Notes under the pieces: model-generated
What the model saw: the letters and a program-made list of their open reading frames with translations, nothing else
What the model was told of the DNA's origin: nothing
The model's database searches: none
Shown: positions 20,865 through 50,016 of the stretch, in pieces
Numbering within the stretch: the first letter of the stretch is position 1
How the letters are laid out: each line of letters begins with the position of its first letter
Source of the DNA: Candidatus Methanomethylophilaceae archaeon
GTDB lineage: Archaea; Thermoplasmatota; Thermoplasmata; Methanomassiliicoccales; Methanomethylophilaceae
NCBI GenBank assembly: GCA_944320495.1
Contig: CALUHR010000005.1
Coordinates: 32,001 to 96,000, forward strand
DNA: 64,000 nt
Reading direction: 5' to 3'
Position numbers and translations under genes: made by a program

Positions 20865-21565
20865 GGTTCCGCCTCGAATACAGGGAGAGCATCCTGTCGG
20901 TCCTCTGCGACGACGGCCTGGAGGGCGTCGCCTACGACGCCATGTTCGAGGCCAGGTCGGCCATAGAGTCGAAGATCGCGGAGGACCCGTTCTTCGGGAT
21001 GACCTACGACCCCTATCCGGCATCCCCCCGGGATCCGGAGATAGTCAGGCGCATGTGCGACGCGTCCGTCATCGCGGGCGTGGGACCGATGGCCGGCGTC
21101 GCCGGCGCGGTGGCCGTGAGCATCGCCGAGAGGCTCGTGCGGGAAGGCTCGTCATTCGCGATAGCCGAGAACGGCGGGGACATAGCGTTCTACTCGAGGG
21201 AGCCGAGACTCATCGGCATCTACGCCGCGCACCCTGTGCTCAGAGACATGGCGTTCTCAGTCTCTTCGGACCATATCATCGGGATATGCTCGTCGTCGAG
21301 GGTGGTGGGACCGTCCGTCTCACTGGGGAACAGCAGCATCAGCACCGTGTTCGCGGACGATGTGATACTAGCGGACTGTTGCGCCACCGCGTTAGGGAAC
21401 CTCGTGAAGGACGAAGGGTCCCTCCAATCCGCCGTGGAGACGGTGGGTTCGATGGAGGGCGTCTCCGGATGCCTCGCGTGCTGCGGGGACAAGGTCGCGA
21501 TGTACGGGGACCTGCCGGAGATCGTGCCGGCAGACTGCTCGGACGTCGCTCCGATGGATGGGTGA
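20861..21565 (+). CDS. UPF0280/ApbE-like protein (COG2122)
   Basis: GVGPMAGVAGA, ENGGDIA, GICSSS...GPSVSLG, ADCCATALGN. Confidence 0.8.
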   Translation: MRFRLEYRESILSVLCDDGLEGVAYDAMFEARSAIESKIAEDPFFGMTYDPYPASPRDPEIVRRMCDASVIAGVGPMAGVAGAVAVSIAERLVREGSSFAIAENGGDIAFYSREPRLIGIYAAHPVLRDMAFSVSSDHIIGICSSSRVVGPSVSLGNSSISTVFADDVILADCCATALGNLVKDEGSLQSAVETVGSMEGVSGCLACCGDKVAMYGDLPEIVPADCSDVAPMDG

Positions 21566-21616
21566 ATCAGAAGGATGGGAAGGCCCGTGCCGCGATGATA
21601 CGGCACGGTGGTTTGC

Positions 21617-23344
21617 TCATGCGGTTCCTGTGGACCCGCTGTCGTCCTCTTCCCCGTCCTCGGTCGGGTCGGCAGGCGTCTCCGGTTCATCCGACGTGTC
21701 GGGTTCCTCGGTCACAGGCTCGTATTCGTGCTCGACGCCATCGGCATCGGTGAACGTCACGACGAGCTTTCCTGCTCCGAGCTTGGAGATTATCCCGTTG
21801 ACATCCATGCTGACCTTCTGGTTGAAGAAGCTGTGAGAAGAACCGGTCATGGTGATGGCATCCTGTCCCTCGCCCCAGGTGAACGTGTAGACGATCGTAC
21901 CGGGCTCGGTGGTGCTGAAGGTGATGTTCGAACCGTCCTCTGGAATGATCTCCTTAACATCAGCTGCGGCCCCATAGGATACGGAGACCTGCTCGGGGGA
22001 TTCGACCGTGATCTTGGCGGTGTCGGCGGAACCCAGCTCGTAGACGGGGATGATGCTGATGGTCGCATCTCCCTTGCCCCAGGCAAGGCCATTGATGGTC
22101 GTGCTGAACGTTCCTGACAGGGAGGACCCTATGTTCACGGCGTAGATCGTAGATGGTGCGTACTCCCAGGATACATAGATGTATAGCGCCTTGAGGATCC
22201 CGTCCTCAGCGGTGGTTATGTTCAGGGTCAGATCAGTAGACTTGTTGAAGGGTTTGGTCAGATCGGCCTCCGCGCCCCCCACATAATACTTCACGTCCAC
22301 ATTGCTGGAAGCATCCGTCACCAAGAACTCGGGCATATCCGCGTTCTCGGCCACCTTGCCGACATACAGGGTTCCCAGGTTGGTGTCGTCCGGGATCGTG
22401 ATCTGAACTGTGGTGCCCTCTGTGACCTTTCCGGCCACGGATCCCCAAGACAGGACGTACTGGGTCTCTACGCCCTCTCCGGCATCGATGGTGAGTGTTG
22501 CTCCGTCCTCGGGGGTGATGATGGCACCATCTCCGAACTGGGCCTCGCCGTAGGTCACCTTGACGCCCTCGTCCGCGATTATTCCTATGTATGCTTTAGG
22601 CTCGGAACTCCCCTTGTCAACCACAGGGGTGACGCCCAGGGTGACATCCTGTCCGGCCTTGACGTTCACAGTGATTGTGGCCTCAAAATCGGTATCGCCC
22701 TTGGTGAGAACGATATCGCCGACCTGGGATACGGAACCAGCAGGGGTCGCATTAATCTTTACATCCTCAATGAAGTCCTTGCAGGTAACCTTCACGACAA
22801 CTGTGACGTCCTCGGTGAGCTCCAACTCCCCGGTTACGGGATCCTCTCCGATGATATACTCGACCTTCGCCCCGGTCTTGTCAGGGTCGGCGAAGGGCGT
22901 GAGCGTCAGGGTGTTCTTCTTCGCGACCTCGCCGAAGGTTATGTTGAATCCCACGGTCACGTCCTTCCCGTCGGAGACGGAGAACTTGGCCTCGTAGACG
23001 AGACCGTCATCGGTCTCGCCGGTCCTCTCCAGGCTGATCAGCTTGGCGCGATCCGCTGGGGACATGGTGAATCCCGTGATCTCGTGGCTTGTGGTGATCT
23101 TGGCTCCGAACTCGACATCGCCGTCGACGGCGGCCTTGCCGTCAGCGATGGCTTTGCCCTCGGAGTCCGTTATCTCTATCTTCACATCGGGGTGCGCCGC
23201 GTCCTCGAAGTCCTCGAACGTGACTGCATACCCCTGGGCTTCGTCGCCCCCATCCCTTGTTAGGAGGTAAGCTGCGGCCGCCGCGACGATCACCACGATC
23301 GCGACGATCAGGACCAGCATCCTCCTGTCCATCTGTAGAGCCAT
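21617..23344 (-). CDS. Membrane-anchored acidic surface protein
   Basis: N-terminal TM (MLVLIVAIVVIVAAAAAYLL), Thr/Val/Gly-rich beta body and an acidic Pro-rich tail. Confidence 0.75.
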   Translation of the reverse strand: MALQMDRRMLVLIVAIVVIVAAAAAYLLTRDGGDEAQGYAVTFEDFEDAAHPDVKIEITDSEGKAIADGKAAVDGDVEFGAKITTSHEITGFTMSPADRAKLISLERTGETDDGLVYEAKFSVSDGKDVTVGFNITFGEVAKKNTLTLTPFADPDKTGAKVEYIIGEDPVTGELELTEDVTVVVKVTCKDFIEDVKINATPAGSVSQVGDIVLTKGDTDFEATITVNVKAGQDVTLGVTPVVDKGSSEPKAYIGIIADEGVKVTYGEAQFGDGAIITPEDGATLTIDAGEGVETQYVLSWGSVAGKVTEGTTVQITIPDDTNLGTLYVGKVAENADMPEFLVTDASSNVDVKYYVGGAEADLTKPFNKSTDLTLNITTAEDGILKALYIYVSWEYAPSTIYAVNIGSSLSGTFSTTINGLAWGKGDATISIIPVYELGSADTAKITVESPEQVSVSYGAAADVKEIIPEDGSNITFSTTEPGTIVYTFTWGEGQDAITMTGSSHSFFNQKVSMDVNGIISKLGAGKLVVTFTDADGVEHEYEPVTEEPDTSDEPETPADPTEDGEEDDSGSTGTA

Positions 23345-23383
23345 ATCGGTCGGCTACGTATCGTAATGACGGATATATACCGG

Positions 23384-24139
23384 TCAGCACCGGTTGGTCT
23401 TGATCATCCACCAGCAGGCCGCGAAGAAGACAGCGAGATACACAGCCAGGATGGCCACCGAGTCCATCGGGATGCATGTGTCCAGCATTATGCCCCTCAT
23501 GAGCTCGCTCACATGGGTGAGCGGGAGCGCGTAGACGACCCATGACGCCACCGACGGAAGGGCTTCGACGTTGAACAGCGTCCCGCACAGGAACGTCATG
23601 GGTATTATCACCAGCGACGTGAACAGGTTCAGATGCTGGCTCTTCTCCATGAACATGCCCACGAGCATCCCCATCAGCGAGAACGTCAGGGCGGCCATGA
23701 CGACCACCAGGATCGCCAGAGGCTGGAGGCTGACCTCCGGGGATATCAGATGCCCGACGACGATGAGCAGCGTGCAGCTCAGCAGCGCGCGGACGATCCC
23801 GGTGGCGCACTTCCCCAGGACGATGGCGGAGATGTGCACAGGGCAGAGCAGCAGCTCGTCGAAGCTCATGTAGAACAGACGCTGTACCAGCACCTTCATC
23901 GCCACCGTCGAGAATGTGGCGGACAGCGTGGTCAGAGCTACTATGCCGGGCACGATGAACGCCAGGTACGCATCGGGGTCGCTGGAGACGCTCCCACCTA
24001 TGCCGAACCCGAACGCCAGCAGATAGAGCAGAGGTCCCACCAGGGATGTGATCAGCACCTCCGCGATGTTGTCCCTGATGTACACGAGGTCGCCCCAGGC
24101 GACCCTGTAGGCCTCGTCGATTATCGAGAGGAGCCTCAT
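23384..24139 (-). CDS. ABC-2 type transporter permease
   Basis: FIVPGIVALTTLS...SFDELLLCP...IIPMTFLCGTLF...LPLTH. Confidence 0.85.
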   Translation of the reverse strand: MRLLSIIDEAYRVAWGDLVYIRDNIAEVLITSLVGPLLYLLAFGFGIGGSVSSDPDAYLAFIVPGIVALTTLSATFSTVAMKVLVQRLFYMSFDELLLCPVHISAIVLGKCATGIVRALLSCTLLIVVGHLISPEVSLQPLAILVVVMAALTFSLMGMLVGMFMEKSQHLNLFTSLVIIPMTFLCGTLFNVEALPSVASWVVYALPLTHVSELMRGIMLDTCIPMDSVAILAVYLAVFFAACWWMIKTNRC

Positions 24140-28056: not shown

Positions 28057-28725
28057 ATGGCCCCCACCATGACTCTCGTATCCCCGTCCATCCTCTCCGC
28101 AGACTTCTCCAGACTCGGCGACGAGGTCGCCCGTGTGGACCGCTCTGGCGCGGACTGGGTCCATCTGGACGTCATGGACGGGATGTTCGTCCCGAACATC
28201 ACATTCGGACCGCCAGTCATCAAGGCTGTCAGGCCCTGCTCCGACAGGCCCTTCGACGCCCATCTCATGATACAGGACCCGGCGAGGTACATCGACGCCT
28301 TCGCCGACGCGGGATGCGATTCGATCACCGTCCACGTGGAGGCCGACGGGGACGTCAGGGACGCCGTCAGGCGCATCTCCGACCATGGGCTGGGCGTGGG
28401 GATCTCCATCAACCCCGAGACCCCCTTCGAGAGGATCGAGCCGTTCCTCCCCGATGCGGACATCGTCCTCGTCATGACCGTCCATCCCGGGTTCGGGGGC
28501 CAGTCGTTCATCGGGGACTGCGTGCCCAAGATCTCCATGGCAAGGCAGTGGGCCGAGGACCACAACCCCGGGCTGCACGTCTCCGTGGACGGCGGCATCA
28601 ATGACGTCACCGCGCGCACCTGCGTCGAGGCGGGCGCGGACGTGCTCGTGGCCGGATCCTTCCTCTTCAAGAAGGAGGACATGGCGCCCACCATCGAGGC
28701 GTGGCACGGCATGAGGGTGAGGCGA
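28057..28725 (+). CDS. rpe: Ribulose-phosphate 3-epimerase (222 aa, ends at CGA)
   Basis: SPSILSADF, HLDVMDGMFVPNITFG, MTVHPGFGGQSF, VDGGIN, VAGSF; ends AGG-CGA-G-ATG(fen). Confidence 0.92.
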
Positions 28726-28726
28726 G

Positions 28727-29755
28727 ATGGGAGTAAACCTCTCGCCCATCGTGGAGTCGGCGCCGATAGAGCTGTCCGACCTCCGCGGGAAGACCGTCGC
28801 CATCGACGCGTACAACACCATCTTCCAGTTCCTCTCGATCATCAGGCAGCCCGACGGGAAGCCGCTCATGGACGACGACGGAATGGTCACGTCCCATCTC
28901 TCGGGACTGCTGTATAGGACCGCGAATCTGATCGAGAACGGCATCGAGCCGGCGTTCGTCTTCGACGGGAAGCCCAGCGAGCTCAAGGCCGGGACCATCG
29001 AGGAGCGCATCGCCAGGCGCGAGAAGGCCAGGGAGGAGTACGAGCAGGCGCTGAGGGAGGGCGACATGCAGAAGGCGTTCTCCAAGGCGCAGCAGACCTC
29101 CAGGATCACGCCGGACATCCTGTCCACCTCGAAGGAGCTGCTGACGCTGATGGGCATACCCGTGATCCAGGCGCCGAGCGACGGGGAGGCCCAGGGGGCG
29201 TACATGTGCCTCAAGGGCGACGTCCATGCCGCCGCCTCCCAGGACTTCGATTCGATTCTCTTCGGCGCGCCCACGCTGGTGCGCAACATCACCATCTCCG
29301 GCAGGCGCAAGGTCCCCGGCAAGAACCTCTACAAGACCGTCCAGCCCGAGATCATAGACACCGGGAGGATGCTCTCGGACCTCGGGGTCACGAGGGAGCA
29401 GCTGGTGGACGTCTGCATCATGATCGGCACCGACTTCAACCCCGGGGTGTCCGGCATCGGGCCGAAGAAGGGATTGAAGCTGATCCAGCAGTACGGCGAC
29501 CTGGAGCACGTGATCGCCGCCAAGGGCTACGACATCCCCGGCTACGAGGAGGTCCGCGAGATCTTCCTGGACGGGCCCAAATCGGACGATTACTCGGTGA
29601 AGCCCGGCCAGGTGGACGCCGACGGAGTGCTGGCCATGATGTCCTCCCACGGGTTCTCGGAGGATCGCGTCAGGACGGTGCTAGGCAAAATGACTGCCGC
29701 CCGCAAGGCGGAGTCTGACAGAAGGAAGCAGAGGTCTCTGGACAGCTGGTTCCGA
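28727..29755 (+). CDS. fen: Flap endonuclease 1 (342 aa, ends at CGA)
   Basis: MGVNLS, AIDAYNTIFQFL, FVFDGKP, APSDGEAQ, SQDFD, GTDFNPG; the C-terminal PIP box KQRSLDSWF is followed directly by CGA. Confidence 0.95.
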
Positions 29756-30427
29756 TCGCGCCCTCACGGCCAGCCTCACCAGGTCATGCCCCTGGGAGAA
29801 CAGCCTGCAGTAGACGTCCCTGCACCTCTTGTAAGACCGGAAGGTCCTCTCGGCGGCCTCTACGTCGCCGTACACCTTCCAGCATCCGATGCAGCGGCAG
29901 CACCTGCCCTCGTTCTCGATGTACCCGCGGACGTCCTCCATGGGATAGTCCAGGAACACGCCGACCTCAGGGGGCATCCTGGGACAGAGCACGAACCTGC
30001 GGCAGAGCTGGTCCACCATGTGCTCCGCGTTCCCGCTGTCGTAGCCGTAGTCCTCGAGGAAGGACATGACCTCGCGGTCTGCGATCCTCGCGCAGAGCAT
30101 CGACGGGCGGTACACGTACACGAGCGAGCCCTCGCCGTCGAAGCTTATGATGCGCACGCGGACGCCGCGGTCGCGGAGCATGCCCTCGATCTCCCTGGTC
30201 TGATGGAGAATACCATGGGGGTCGGACTCCACCCTGAACATGCTTCCGCACTTCAGGCCCGCCAAGGTCGGCGAACAGTGGCGGACGACGCGCTCGCGCA
30301 GGTCGGGAACGGAGGTTCCCACCCGTCCGGGGCATGTCTCTAATATTGGACGGGCTGGCTCATGGATCTCTGCTATGTCGGAAAGTCCCTTCCCGCAGAC
30401 CGAGTCGCCGTGTATGTCCGACCTCAT
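29756..30427 (-). CDS. DUF3793-family protein (ends at CGA)
   Basis: HCSPTLAGLKCGSMF, VYVYRP, PPEVGVFLDYPMEDVRGYI, GCWKVY; ends LVRLAVRA-CGA abutting fen. The start is uncertain. Confidence 0.8.
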
Positions 30428-31938: not shown

Positions 31939-32103
31939 ACGATATCTTTCGCTCCAAAGTCATGAGTCCGTCTCACGGACATATTCATCAAAGGTCATCC
32001 CCCGGCCCATAGCCAGTACAGATGTTCGACGTTATACGAGGATTTCAGGACTCGTCGAATCTACAATCCTCGAACACGATTCATGATTAGGTAAATTTAT
32101 ATA

Positions 32104-45976: not shown

Positions 45977-46525
45977 TCGCACCATGTCGGTCCCGACCAG
46001 CGTCACCTCTGTGACCTCGAACCCGTCCCAGCGGTCGCACTGCCTCACGAACCTGTGGACCAGGGAGTCCCCTCCGATGTAGAAGGTGTCCGTCTCCGTG
46101 CAGCCCTCGCGCTCCCTCCACACGGTGTACACGCTGCAGACGGCCTCGCCGTCGAAGGTGTCCAGCATCGCGTAGCCGGCGCTCCTCTCCGAGAGGCGCT
46201 CCAGCGCGTCGTCGGAGAGTATCAGGGAGCCGGGATCGAACCCCTCGAGGGATTCGTCGGATGGCTCCCCGTCTATGTAGATGTCCAAGGTGAAGCGACC
46301 GTCCGGGCGGACATCGGACACCACGCCGCGGACGGTGTGGCTCTCGACTGACGCGTCCCTCCCCTCGACGGTGCGGGTGACCTCCCACTCGATGTAGGAC
46401 CCCTCGGACACCTCGCAGGATGATGGCGCCTCCAGGGCATCGGTGCCGTATACGATGAGGACGGAGGTCGCGACGGCGAGGACGGAGATCATGATCGCGA
46501 CGGCGGCCCTGCTGACGGGGATCAT
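45977..46525 (-). CDS. Membrane-anchored hypothetical protein (182 aa, ends at CGA)
   Basis: ATGA overlap with the NifK-like gene; N-terminal TM, GSYIEWEV; ends LVGTDMV-CGA. In the standard code it would run through the terminator to a TAG at 45875. Confidence 0.7.
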
Positions 46526-47784
46526 GTGTTCCTCACCCCGTGGAGGATCTCGTCGAGGATGTACATGGCACCCCGGAGGCCGTAGACCGGCCTGGGGATG
46601 ATGTCGTCGATGCCCATCGACGAGTACCCGATCGGGATGCCGGCGCGGCATTCGCCCGCGACCTTCATCGTCAGGGCGGTGATCCCCTCGCATAGAACGA
46701 CGCCGGACGGCACGGGCTCCCTGCCCCACGCCTCCGGGAATCCGATCCTCCCTAGGAACGACCCCAGCTCCTCCGATTCGGTCTCGTCGGCGCCGTCGTC
46801 GACTGCTACCGCGGCGGGAGCCATCGCCAGATAGCCGTACAGCCACTCGGTCAGCGGTCTGATCACGGACGCCGTCCCGGCAGCCGAGAATGTGAGCCCG
46901 CGTATGCGGAGGGCGTTGTAGCGCATGCCGATGAACCTGCGGCGGACCTCCCGCCTGCAGGCATCCACCCTGGCGAGGGCCTTCGACGGGTCCCTGCCGG
47001 TCGCCTCCGCGACCGCCCTGACCCACGCCTCCGTCGCATCGAAGCCGACGGGCGCCCCCTTCGGGGAGCGGATGCTCGACACGCCGCGGGATTCGTACCA
47101 CTCCGTCAGCCCGTAGCACATCTCCGGGCAGACGATGACGTTGAACTCGGAGTCGACGGAGCGGACCATCCCCTCTACTGAGGAGCCTGCGCCGGGGCAG
47201 CAGGCGACCTCCAGACCCATGTCCCCCAGAAGGGAGACCAGCTCGTCCCTGGCGGCCATCCAGTCCTTGTCCATCAGCGACATGCCGAGGAGGTTCACAG
47301 TCCCCTCGCGGACGTCCCTCCTCTCCGGGTCCAGGAATTCCATCACATGTGCCAGCGTGCGCCCGCAGGCCCACGTTGCGGGGACCGAGGCCATGGACTC
47401 GGGGATGTGCATGGCCACGTCCTCCAGCCCGTTCTCCCTGATGGCGCGCCAGTGGTCGTCACCGATAAGGCTGGCGCCGGGCGAGTCTATCACCACCGCG
47501 AGCGCCGGATGCCTGAGCGACACCTCGCCGAGGCCCTCCGCGGACTTGTAGTAGGCGCCGTTGATGAAGTCGTACTCGTCGAGATAGGACGACGGCACCC
47601 TAGGATACCCGTAGTAGTACGGCGCAGAGAAGGACTCCTCGCCGTCCCTCGGAAGCACCGCCGAGGACACCACGGTGTGGCGTATCCTGCAGCCTCCCGG
47701 CCCGTGCAGGAACACCGCCGCATCGGATATCCCTTCGACAGCCATGATCGAACCCGTGAGCCCGTCGGGCAGCTGCCTCATCAT
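46522..47784 (-). CDS. Nitrogenase component-1-like oxidoreductase subunit (NifK/BchZ-like, single conserved Cys)
   Basis: [45 protein letters not shown]. Confidence 0.75.
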   Translation of the reverse strand: MMRQLPDGLTGSIMAVEGISDAAVFLHGPGGCRIRHTVVSSAVLPRDGEESFSAPYYYGYPRVPSSYLDEYDFINGAYYKSAEGLGEVSLRHPALAVVIDSPGASLIGDDHWRAIRENGLEDVAMHIPESMASVPATWACGRTLAHVMEFLDPERRDVREGTVNLLGMSLMDKDWMAARDELVSLLGDMGLEVACCPGAGSSVEGMVRSVDSEFNVIVCPEMCYGLTEWYESRGVSSIRSPKGAPVGFDATEAWVRAVAEATGRDPSKALARVDACRREVRRRFIGMRYNALRIRGLTFSAAGTASVIRPLTEWLYGYLAMAPAAVAVDDGADETESEELGSFLGRIGFPEAWGREPVPSGVVLCEGITALTMKVAGECRAGIPIGYSSMGIDDIIPRPVYGLRGAMYILDEILHGVRNT

Positions 47785-49910
47785 GGCATCCTCCATCCCT
47801 CGACCGCCGGGAGGCGGGAGGTGTTCTCCAGATACCGGATGTAGTCGAACACGGGGCGGTAGCCCACGCCCATCCTGCTGAGCTTGGCGAACGTGGTGCC
47901 CTCCGGAACGGGTCTGGCTATGTCTCCGATGAGGTAGTCTGGCCTCATATCGTGAAGATCCCTCGCGAGGTCCTCCTCCGTGTAGTCCTCTGTGACCTTG
48001 TACCTCGAATCCGCCCTGCCTCCGGCCTTGCGGGGGCTCGGCGCGACCCCGACCCTGAGGATGTCGACGCCCAGATTGTCCAGAGCGTCTATGAGCCAGT
48101 CGGGGTTGGAGCCGATCTTCCAGGCCACGATGACGCGCTTCCCCTCCATCTTCGGGCGGTGCGATTCCAGGAACGCTTCGTACTCCGCTCTGGCACGTTC
48201 GGTTTCTTTCAAGGCCATCTCCTCCCTGCCGGTCCGGCGCCCCATCTCGGACACCCAGTCCAGGTACCCGCGCATGCCCATGGGCATCGGCGCCGGGAAC
48301 GGCTCCCTGCCAGTCCTCTCCGTTATTAGCGACATCGTGCGCCTCGCGGCCCGGGTGTCGCTCATCAGCATGTCGAACTCCGCGCGGCACACCTCCTCAG
48401 GGGGAGCCGGCGAGCCGTCGTCGATGAACCTGCAGTTCACCTTCAATCCGAAGGATGCCAGCATCCTGTCCAGCTCCCGGCGGTGGTCGGGGGACTGTAT
48501 GTCGAAGAACGAGTTGGAAACCAGGTTCACCAGGCCCCTCTCCGGCTCCAGCGAAGGGTCGATGCGGTCCGCGATGGCCTCGGCGGCCATCTCGAAGCCG
48601 TCGTTGTACTCGCCGGCGATGTCTCCGTCCGCAGATACGAGATCTATGCGAACGTCGGGATGTGCCAGACGCGCCGATTGGACGACGGACTGGCAGTCGT
48701 CGCCGATGATCCCGGGCATGCAGGTGGTGACCACGGCCACCTTGCGGTAGCCCTCGGATATCGCGTTCTCCAGGGACCATCTCAGGAACCCGTCGCCGCC
48801 GAATATGGCGGCGGAGTCGTCCATCATCGACGAGCGTATGTCGCAGGTCGGGGGACGGGAGTACAGACCCTGCTCGTAGAGTCCGAGCACGGCCTTGGCG
48901 CGGGTGGTGGCCATGAGGTACGAGCAGGACATGGGGCCGTGGACCACCACGGCCGTGTCACCGAGCCTGGAGAAAGCGGCCACGGCGCCGTAGGCGGCGC
49001 AGGAGCTCATGACCCTGGCATCCTTGATCGATGATCTGCGGCAGGCGCCGCATCCGGTTCGTTGGGGCAGATTACCCGATGAAGGGCGTATCTCCCTGCC
49101 GGCCGCCAGGTCGGAGAGCTGGTCGTCGTCCAGGGGGTGCGGGAAGGACATCACATCCTCGCCGTCGGATGCGACGGCGATGCGGTCCGCAATCCCGCGG
49201 ACCTGGTCCGCTATCGCGCTGTCCGGGTAGAGTTCCATGACCGTGTGGCCCTTCGATTCGGCGTCGGCAAAGAGGCGATCCCTCGGAATGACGGCGATGA
49301 CCTCGGTGCCGGTGGCGCGGGCGAACCTCTCCACGGTCTCCCTCTCCCCCTCCACCCCGCGGCAGTTGAGCACGATGCCCAGCAGTCTGGGCCTCCCGTT
49401 GTCGAAGTTCAGCAGGCCGCGCATGATGTTGTTGGCCGCGTACATCGCCATGAACTCACCGGATGTCACCAGTATGACGGCGTCAGCGTACTCGTTCCTC
49501 AGCGGGACGGCGAACCCTCCGCACACGACGTCCCCGAGGACGTCGTAGATCCTAACGTCCGTGTCGACGGAGTCGGCGCCGAGCCTCTTCAGAGTGTCGA
49601 AGGTTGTGAGGATCCCACGGCCGGCGCATCCTATGCCCGGCTCGGGGCCGCCGGCCTCGGTGCAGAGCACCCCAGCGGTGCCCTCCTCGATCACATCCTC
49701 GAGCCTCCTCCGGCCGATCGGCGTGTCCCTCACGTAGTCGAGGACGGTGCGCTGGGCCCTCCCTCCCAGGAGGAGGCGGGTGGAGTCGTGCTTCGGGTCG
49801 CAGCCGACCTGCATGACCCTCATACCCCTCTCCGCCAGGGCCACGGAGATGTTGGCGGACATCGTCGACTTCCCGATGCCGCCCTTGCCGTACACCGCCA
49901 CTTGGAACAT
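47781..49910 (-). CDS. NifH-like reductase fused to a NifD/E-like component-1 domain
   Basis: [43 protein letters not shown]; then SSCAAYGA, HGPMSC, TTCMPGIIGDD. Confidence 0.88.
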   Translation of the reverse strand: MFQVAVYGKGGIGKSTMSANISVALAERGMRVMQVGCDPKHDSTRLLLGGRAQRTVLDYVRDTPIGRRRLEDVIEEGTAGVLCTEAGGPEPGIGCAGRGILTTFDTLKRLGADSVDTDVRIYDVLGDVVCGGFAVPLRNEYADAVILVTSGEFMAMYAANNIMRGLLNFDNGRPRLLGIVLNCRGVEGERETVERFARATGTEVIAVIPRDRLFADAESKGHTVMELYPDSAIADQVRGIADRIAVASDGEDVMSFPHPLDDDQLSDLAAGREIRPSSGNLPQRTGCGACRRSSIKDARVMSSCAAYGAVAAFSRLGDTAVVVHGPMSCSYLMATTRAKAVLGLYEQGLYSRPPTCDIRSSMMDDSAAIFGGDGFLRWSLENAISEGYRKVAVVTTCMPGIIGDDCQSVVQSARLAHPDVRIDLVSADGDIAGEYNDGFEMAAEAIADRIDPSLEPERGLVNLVSNSFFDIQSPDHRRELDRMLASFGLKVNCRFIDDGSPAPPEEVCRAEFDMLMSDTRAARRTMSLITERTGREPFPAPMPMGMRGYLDWVSEMGRRTGREEMALKETERARAEYEAFLESHRPKMEGKRVIVAWKIGSNPDWLIDALDNLGVDILRVGVAPSPRKAGGRADSRYKVTEDYTEEDLARDLHDMRPDYLIGDIARPVPEGTTFAKLSRMGVGYRPVFDYIRYLENTSRLPAVEGWRMP

Positions 49911-49918
49911 ACATCCAG
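49902..49918. promoter_or_regulatory. TTGGAT-N5-ATCCAA operator copy overlapping the start codon of the NifH-fusion gene
   Basis: TTGGAACATACATCCAG. Confidence 0.55.
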
Positions 49919-50016
49919 GAATAACGGACGGGATGATAACATGTTCGACGGACCGTGCCACCCTTCATGTACGTCCTCGGGATTCCCCTCGCAACATCAC
50001 GGAGAATGTGAGGGAC

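Follow-up and report, generated by a model that had tools for sequence, protein, structure and literature searches.

Convergent genes ending in CGATCG

We analyzed a 64,000-nucleotide stretch of DNA, hereafter the window (positions 32,001 to 96,000 of contig CALUHR010000005.1, or C5, of assembly GCA_944320495.1), from a Candidatus Methanomethylophilaceae archaeon belonging to the genus Candidatus Methanoprimaticola, whose genome of 1.77 Mb (62% GC) is represented by an assembly that is 90.6% complete. In this window, the gene fen, which codes for flap endonuclease-1 (FEN-1), and a gene of the DUF3793 family are convergent and lie back to back with zero spacer, their coding sequences ending on two CGA codons that are joined as the palindrome CGATCG. 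On the plus strand, the 3′ end of fen reads AAG CAG AGG TCT CTG GAC AGC TGG TTC CGA, with its last base at 29755, and on the minus strand CGA (29758-29756) directly follows the codons of the DUF3793 terminus ...RLAVRA. A first-pass annotation made from the letters alone had proposed that CGA acts here as a stop codon; re-reading of both strands bore out its sequence, its coordinates and the tail-to-tail junction that it described. Under the standard code (translation table 11), fen would extend from 28727 to 30343 and encode 538 amino acid residues (aa) rather than 342, a difference of 196, and DUF3793 would extend from 30427 to 29681 and encode 248 aa rather than 223. The two table-11 frames overlap over 663 bp (29681-30343), in good agreement with the overlap of about 660 bp and the 196 additional FEN-1 residues given in the first-pass annotation.

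The terminal CGA is codon 343 of fen and its first in-frame CGA, and the CGA on the opposite strand is codon 224 of DUF3793 and its only in-frame CGA. The fen core contains 32 CGA trinucleotides out of frame and none in frame, DUF3793 contains 19 out of frame, and the apparent fen extension has three more in its frame. Comparison with protein families places both ends at the same six bases. Residues 1-342 of FEN-1 match the archaeal profile TIGR03674 (fen_arch, NCBIfam) from position 1 to 338 of 338, with 445.5 bits against a curated cut-off of 351.95, and include the Pfam domains XPG_N (PF00752, residues 13-100) and XPG_I (PF00867, residues 143-236), while Pfam and NCBIfam profile searches gave no family match for residues 343-538. 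Likewise, residues 48-219 of the 223-aa DUF3793 protein match positions 2-166 of the 167-position profile PF12672 with 171.5 bits, the gathering score being 25.1. The coding signal behaves in the same way: the coding score per codon falls from +0.41 in the core of fen to −0.16 in the apparent extension, and from +0.25 to −0.53 between the corresponding parts of DUF3793.

The last residues of the 342-aa FEN-1 form a PCNA-interacting (PIP) box, which is C-terminal only if CGA halts translation. Solved chains of archaeal FEN-1 are 326-363 aa long and end on WF plus 0-3 residues, those of Pyrococcus furiosus and Pyrococcus horikoshii ending on ...LESWF plus two or three residues. The view that archaeal FEN-1 characteristically ends with QxxLxxWF is thus upheld by the Pyrococcus proteins, as well as by the C-terminal PIP box of the 63 orthologs described below. 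The two CGAs at this junction exceed chance coincidence, because both of them fall at the ends of full-length profile matches and at the positions where orthologs have TGA, TAA or TAG. The coordinates of the junction and of its surroundings are compiled in Table 1.

Table 1. Coordinates (window positions) of the fen/DUF3793 junction and adjoining features
Feature	Position	Strand	Basis
fen coding sequence, flap endonuclease-1, 342 aa	28727..29752	+	Full-length match to TIGR03674; XPG_N and XPG_I
PIP box QRSLDSWF (QxxLxxWF), codons 335-342, the last 8 of fen	29729..29752	+	Conservation in orthologs
CGA read as fen terminator	29753..29755	+	Standard stops at the same codon in orthologs; coding score falls behind it
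CGA read as DUF3793 terminator (TCG on the plus strand)	29756..29758	-	Stops of orthologs; end of Pfam profile
DUF3793 family gene, 223 aa	29759..30427	-	PF12672, E=2e-50
Apparent 196-codon fen extension under table 11, non-coding in the fen frame	29756..30343	+	No family match; negative coding score
Apparent 25-codon DUF3793 extension under table 11, antisense to the PIP-box region of fen	29681..29755	-	Coding score -0.53
rpe, ribulose-phosphate 3-epimerase, 222 aa, CGA-terminated at 28723-28725	28057..28725	+	Match to TIGR01163

The neighboring gene rpe shows the same organization. Its CGA is located one base ahead of the fen ATG (AGG CGA G ATG), and residues 8-215 of its product match positions 2-209 of the 211 in TIGR01163. 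Table 11 would make this protein 286 aa long, with an end at 28917 and an overlap of 191 bp with fen.

Loss of coding signal behind CGA across the genome

We then evaluated every in-frame codon of the genome with a codon log-odds model covering 50 codons on either side, and kept the cases in which the upstream sequence was strongly coding. Coding sequence lies behind only 1.4% of the 281 CGA cases kept (median downstream score of −17.4), a value comparable to the 3.6% found for 883 TGA cases (median of −20.0), whereas thirteen sense codons are followed by coding sequence in 54-78% of cases, with medians between +12 and +19. TAA and TAG are both rare (34 and 21 cases kept, respectively). CGG remains Arg-like in the same test, and CGA is among the commonest trinucleotides of the genome. 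Our results indicate that coding ends at CGA, at the fen site and genome-wide. As for TAG, coding continues behind 29% of the 21 cases, which is what a pyrrolysine-using member of the Methanomassiliicoccales should show; a search with ARAGORN found no tRNA-Pyl in the 90.6%-complete assembly.

The two cases of in-frame coding sequence behind CGA that were checked correspond to adjacent genes. One is Pelota (contig C1, around 20900-23500), which ends ...ILRYRL followed by CGA and which table 11 fuses to the next gene in a frame of 858 aa. The other is CfbC (NifH-like, 300 aa; 47781-49961, minus strand), which also ends on CGA and is fused in frame by table 11 to a NifD/NifE-like gene, probably CfbD, giving a frame of 726 aa. 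The ends of family profiles coincide with CGA for rpe, CfbC and a BtuC-type permease. Of the 54 crude gene calls made in the window, 14 are CGA-terminated, including seven of the eight consecutive calls located between 25340 and 31938.

Tail-to-tail CGATCG junctions are common in this genome, since CGATCG occurs 42 times at its terminators. Another terminator of the window lies within CGATCG at 45977. A second convergent pair (25963/25967) reads CGA TCG TCG and has CGA on both strands, three bases apart. The base following CGA terminators is T in 52% of cases, against 30% after TGA, and C in 18%; taken as a pair, the bases behind CGA read TC in 28% of cases and TG in 23%. This T bias may reflect the context of termination, abutting convergent stops or overlapping ATG starts. 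Tandem back-up stops are not enriched: the 50 codons behind the terminator include a standard stop in 59% of CGA cases and 62% of TGA cases. Inspection by eye of the other two forward frames after the WF codons of fen revealed no close stop to which a frameshift could lead.

Orthologous stops and junction forms in relatives

Of 63 fen loci in public genomes, 62 have a terminator immediately behind the PIP box; in the remaining one, a single Gly codon separates the box from TAA. The terminator behind WF or FF is TGA in 42 loci, TAA in nine, TAG in three and CGA in nine. Standard stops are thus found after WF/FF in 54 of the 63 loci, as the first-pass annotation had expected for orthologs, and CGA in nine loci of the genus. 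All nine CGA-type loci, one of them the WF-CGA locus of the culture Candidatus Methanoprimaticola sp. MG2, fall within a group sharing at least 74% identity that includes Candidatus Methanoprimaticola and UBA71. On the fen nucleotide tree, CGA and a standard stop must have replaced one another independently four times or more. Twelve archaeal fen contigs are found in records titled Lachnospiraceae, Bifidobacteriaceae, Bacteroides, Prevotella, Dialister and other bacteria; these records are probably mis-binned or mislabelled metagenome-assembled genomes.

The opposite strand of the junction displays the same alternation. The terminus ...LAVR(A/C) of DUF3793 orthologs has TGA, TAA or CGA behind it, four orthologs besides the one studied here being CGA-terminated, and the 25-codon extension is absent from the orthologs that terminate on TGA or TAA. 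In relatives whose two genes abut in the same phase, the forms TGATCA, TGATCG, CGATCA and CGATCG are all found. CGATCG had been described as the CGA equivalent of a TGATCA junction, and this equivalence is corroborated by the presence in relatives of TGATCA itself and of both mixed forms. In this series, T and C therefore alternate at the first base of each stop, and they do so independently for fen and for the opposite-strand gene.

Long FEN-1 proteins as read-through calls

Orthologs sharing the long extension, which the first-pass annotation took as speaking against a CGA stop, do exist superficially, as public protein sets contain 16 clusters of "FEN-1" proteins of 493-570 aa. These clusters, however, are table-11 read-through calls, because the frame is also open after TGA, the length of the extension varies and the substitutions in the overlap follow a pattern of the DUF3793 type. 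In eight cases, orthologs with WF followed by TGA have a fen frame that remains open for 194-223 codons behind the stop, and in CGA-type orthologs the next standard stop is located from 13 to 227 codons away. In pairwise comparisons of the overlap among 12 orthologs, the differences were 0.251 at the first, 0.207 at the second and 0.383 at the third codon position of DUF3793; the most variable class of sites is therefore position 3 of DUF3793, which corresponds to position 1 of the fen frame. Because it is equally open behind TGA-terminated fen genes, the frame owes its openness to the antisense strand of DUF3793 and not to fen, and the extension is free of selection in the fen frame.

CGA use in the genus Candidatus Methanoprimaticola

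The coding-loss test was also carried out on 40-100 kb from each of ten other genomes of the genus, for a total of 11 with the genome studied here. In all 11, CGA is either terminator-like or unused, and each relative has at most one CGA with coding sequence behind it. The ratio of terminator-like CGA to TGA ranges from 26:21 in G010 and 15:29 in G001 through 5:30, 5:43 (G004) and 3:34 to 0:47 in G008, and members of the genus with 51-54% GC have a CGA terminator count of 0 to 1. In the outgroup G019, four of 12 CGAs are followed by coding sequence, like the other Arg codons of that genome, and the outgroup G024 provided too few CGA cases for a reading.

The Arg codons of fen itself point in the same direction. 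No in-frame CGA is found among approximately 790 Arg codons in 36 genes from the genus, and 18 of 593 are CGA in 26 outgroup genes. Outgroup genes for the archaeal release factor aRF1 contain several CGAs each. Together, these comparisons indicate that CGA as an ordinary sense codon is absent from the genus, and that TGA and CGA interchange at orthologous stops.

The release factor and tRNA-Arg(UCG)

The genome contains one aRF1 gene, the other gene with an eRF1 domain being Pelota. A single in-frame CGA is present in aRF1 at codon 78, twenty codons past the NIKS motif, in 14 of 15 genus genomes, while G005 has AAG. Twelve outgroups encode Arg at this position by codons other than CGA and have their CGAs elsewhere in the gene. 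The codon-78 CGA is invariant while flanking codons vary synonymously, the next base is always C, a base that follows only 18% of CGA terminators, and this codon is the only conserved in-gene CGA found in this analysis. Flanking NIKS, residues 53Q, 56A, 63T and 65M are fixed in 14 genus sequences and different in all 12 outgroups. The YxCxxxF motif reads YRC in every aRF1 row inspected, from the genus and outgroup alike (YRCDS in the aRF1s studied here).

A gene for tRNA-Arg(UCG) was found in 18 of the 19 genus genomes searched and was not found in G006, which is 93% complete. In this genome (contig C13:413317-413390), its D-loop is two bases shorter than that of the other four Arg tRNAs. All 11 aligned tRNA-Arg(UCG) genes of the genus have a mismatch at 31:39, and three other stem pairs show compensatory changes. 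Four low-GC members have a different aberration, C33 in place of the near-universal U33 and a mismatch at 27:43, with the anticodon loop CCUCGAC (for instance G008, C1:762581-762657). Every copy inspected in the genus thus has an aberrant anticodon arm of one kind or the other, and seven outgroup tRNA-Arg(UCG) have a canonical 5-bp stem and U33. Loss of this tRNA from the low-GC members was considered and rejected, given that the second-best covariance-model hits are tRNA-Arg(UCG) with the loop CCUCGAC.

CGA as a proposed fourth stop codon and alternative explanations

We propose that in the code of this genus CGA is a fourth stop codon beside TGA, TAA and TAG and no ordinary Arg codon, so that FEN-1 has 342 residues and the DUF3793 protein 223, a reading to which we assign a probability of roughly 85%. 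Mechanistically, the single archaeal aRF1 would recognize CGA as well as UGA, from which CGA differs by its first base only. The tRNA-Arg(UCG), with its aberrant anticodon arm, probably decodes CGA weakly and may serve mainly to read the conserved CGA inside aRF1 (codon 78). By analogy with bacterial RF2, this codon could exert negative feedback on aRF1 synthesis. We lean, with only slightly more confidence than doubt, towards the broader view that the whole genus uses a four-stop code in which a modified aRF1 reads CGA and a deliberately weakened tRNA-Arg(UCG) reads through the aRF1 CGA, making termination self-tuning, and that this would be the first sense-to-stop change in a free-living organism. 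It also seems somewhat more probable than the opposite that the genus displays stages of the change, CGA being unused in some members and terminating half of the sampled genes in others.

Several observations weigh against the fourth-stop reading. Termination at CGA is deduced here from DNA alone, and the substitutions in aRF1 only correlate with the code change. From one member of the genus to another, CGA terminators differ greatly in frequency, and GC content does not by itself account for this, G004 (61% GC) having five CGA against 43 TGA. The next standard stop is located 196 codons behind the fen CGA, so that read-through would be costly. Finally, tRNA-Arg(UCG) persists under purifying selection; for this reason, some decoding of CGA as Arg may continue, and termination may be leaky or context-dependent.

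The most serious alternative to CGA as a true stop is that the codon is unassigned, or "hungry", in which case ribosomes would stall at it and the peptide would be freed by rescue, of the Pelota/ABCE1 type or by peptidyl-tRNA drop-off, without recognition by aRF1. An impaired-looking anticodon arm, the presence of a Pelota gene and the fact that several low-GC members barely use CGA as sense or stop, which is the stage expected in codon capture, are all compatible with it. We nevertheless consider this explanation unlikely, given that a quarter to half of the genes end in CGA in some species, that routine rescue, for fen and rpe included, would be costly, that the conserved in-frame CGA of aRF1 and the substitutions next to NIKS that are peculiar to the genus implicate the release factor, and that yeast eRF1 is able to read CGA. 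C-to-U editing of the mRNA, which would turn the terminal CGA into UGA, is very improbable. Editing of this kind makes stops from CGA in plant organelles, and DNA alone is compatible with it; we know of no mRNA editing in archaea. What argues against editing is that only in-frame CGAs are avoided while out-of-frame CGAs are abundant, the ribosome alone being aware of the frame, and that frame-blind editing of the eight fen sites in frame +1 would convert Pro, Ser, Ala and Thr codons into Leu, Val and Met codons.

We give hardly any credence to a standard code in which FEN-1 is truly 538 aa long and has a C-terminal domain that is antisense to DUF3793 and common to the long orthologs. The frame that stays open for 196 codons and the 16 public clusters of 493-570 aa would suit such a protein, yet the frame is equally open after TGA, the extension varies from 13 to 227 codons with its variation peaking at position 1 of the fen frame, its coding score is negative and no family match lies past residue 342. 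An internal PIP box would moreover be unlike the 54 orthologs that end there on TGA, TAA or TAG. As for a sequencing or assembly artefact, or a planted change, in which the T of TGA is misread as C, for instance at methylated GATC, its probability is practically nil, even though TC follows 28% of CGA terminators and the fen site itself is CGATCG. Most CGA terminators lie outside a GATC context, and the same pattern recurs across species in numerous public assemblies made independently, among them ones whose contigs are named in the SPAdes style and one RefSeq record. Errors could explain neither the removal of sense CGAs, nor the single CGA retained in aRF1, nor the altered tRNA. GATC methylation or long-read error as the origin of CGATCG was rejected on the same grounds, the low share of TC, the agreement of short-read-style assemblies and the purging of sense CGAs.

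Relation to known genetic codes

Codons that changed from sense to stop are AGA and AGG in vertebrate mitochondria (table 2), UCA in Scenedesmus mitochondria (table 22) and UUA in Thraustochytrium mitochondria (table 23), and to our knowledge such codes are known only from organelles. As in these codes, the former sense codon of Candidatus Methanoprimaticola vanishes inside genes and marks their ends. Unlike organelles, with their tiny genomes and handful of genes, the organism is here a free-living archaeon with a genome of approximately 1.8 Mb and hundreds of CGA-terminated genes. The codon itself, CGA, also sets this case apart, as do the retention of the cognate tRNA gene and a release factor of the eRF1 type.

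Two features recall other systems of termination and decoding. The bacterial RF2 gene, prfB, has an in-frame UGA early in the gene, from which the ribosome escapes by +1 frameshifting. By analogy, the aRF1 gene would carry an early in-frame codon at which the factor itself would terminate, the escape differing in that tRNA-Arg(UCG) would read through a codon whose position encodes Arg in outgroups. In Blastocrithidia and Condylostoma, a tRNA-Trp(CCA) with a 4-bp anticodon stem reads UGA. Here too, one anticodon-stem pair is lost, in a conserved manner, from a tRNA cognate to the reassigned codon. Unlike the tRNA-Trp(CCA), whose decoding is extended to a stop, the tRNA concerned is that of the codon turned stop, and a weakening effect of the lost pair is a guess.

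Release at CGA by a factor of the eRF1 family is known from yeast. There, eRF1/eRF3 and tRNA-Arg compete for CGA, which is a rare sense codon, and the release of peptides is a weak side reaction (Wada and Ito 2018, PMC7379694). UGA-biased eRF1 variants within YxCxxxF, such as L123R, which places Arg at the x between Y and C, the residue that is Arg in the YRC of the aRF1s, favor release at CGA (PMC7379694). In Candidatus Methanoprimaticola, termination would be what CGA ordinarily means. CGA has also been conjectured to be a stop in two Njordarchaeales (Asgard) assemblies of about 50% GC, where it is absent from conserved domains (KACI preprint, doi 10.64898/2026.04.02.715157). That case is coupled to the reassignment of CGG to Trp, tRNA(UCG) was not found, and the method used cannot infer stops (doi 10.64898/2026.04.02.715157). 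In comparison, Candidatus Methanoprimaticola is an unrelated lineage in which gene ends were tested directly, CGG is Arg-like and tRNA(UCG) is present. In the archaeal "code 34", whose genera include Methanomethylophilus, all TAGs are read as pyrrolysine, and CGA is unmentioned (doi 10.1101/2024.09.30.615893). The same family would thus contain both a stop-to-sense change, of TAG, and a sense-to-stop change, of CGA. Our literature search turned up neither a description of a CGA stop in Candidatus Methanoprimaticola or the Methanomethylophilaceae nor a paper on a sense-to-stop code change in any free-living organism.

These findings have immediate consequences for annotation. Annotation with table 11 is wrong for about a quarter of the genes of this genome and for up to half in one relative, and erroneous table-11 proteins have already entered public databases, among them a 538-aa "FEN-1" with a buried PCNA motif. 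The fen/DUF3793 junction is a compact diagnostic, as it brings two well-defined protein ends within six bases and occurs in relatives with every combination of TGA and CGA, and its CGATCG is clean single-site evidence for a CGA stop. If true, a cellular sense-to-stop case with intermediates in a single genus would make the evolution of stop recognition by eRF1-type factors directly testable.

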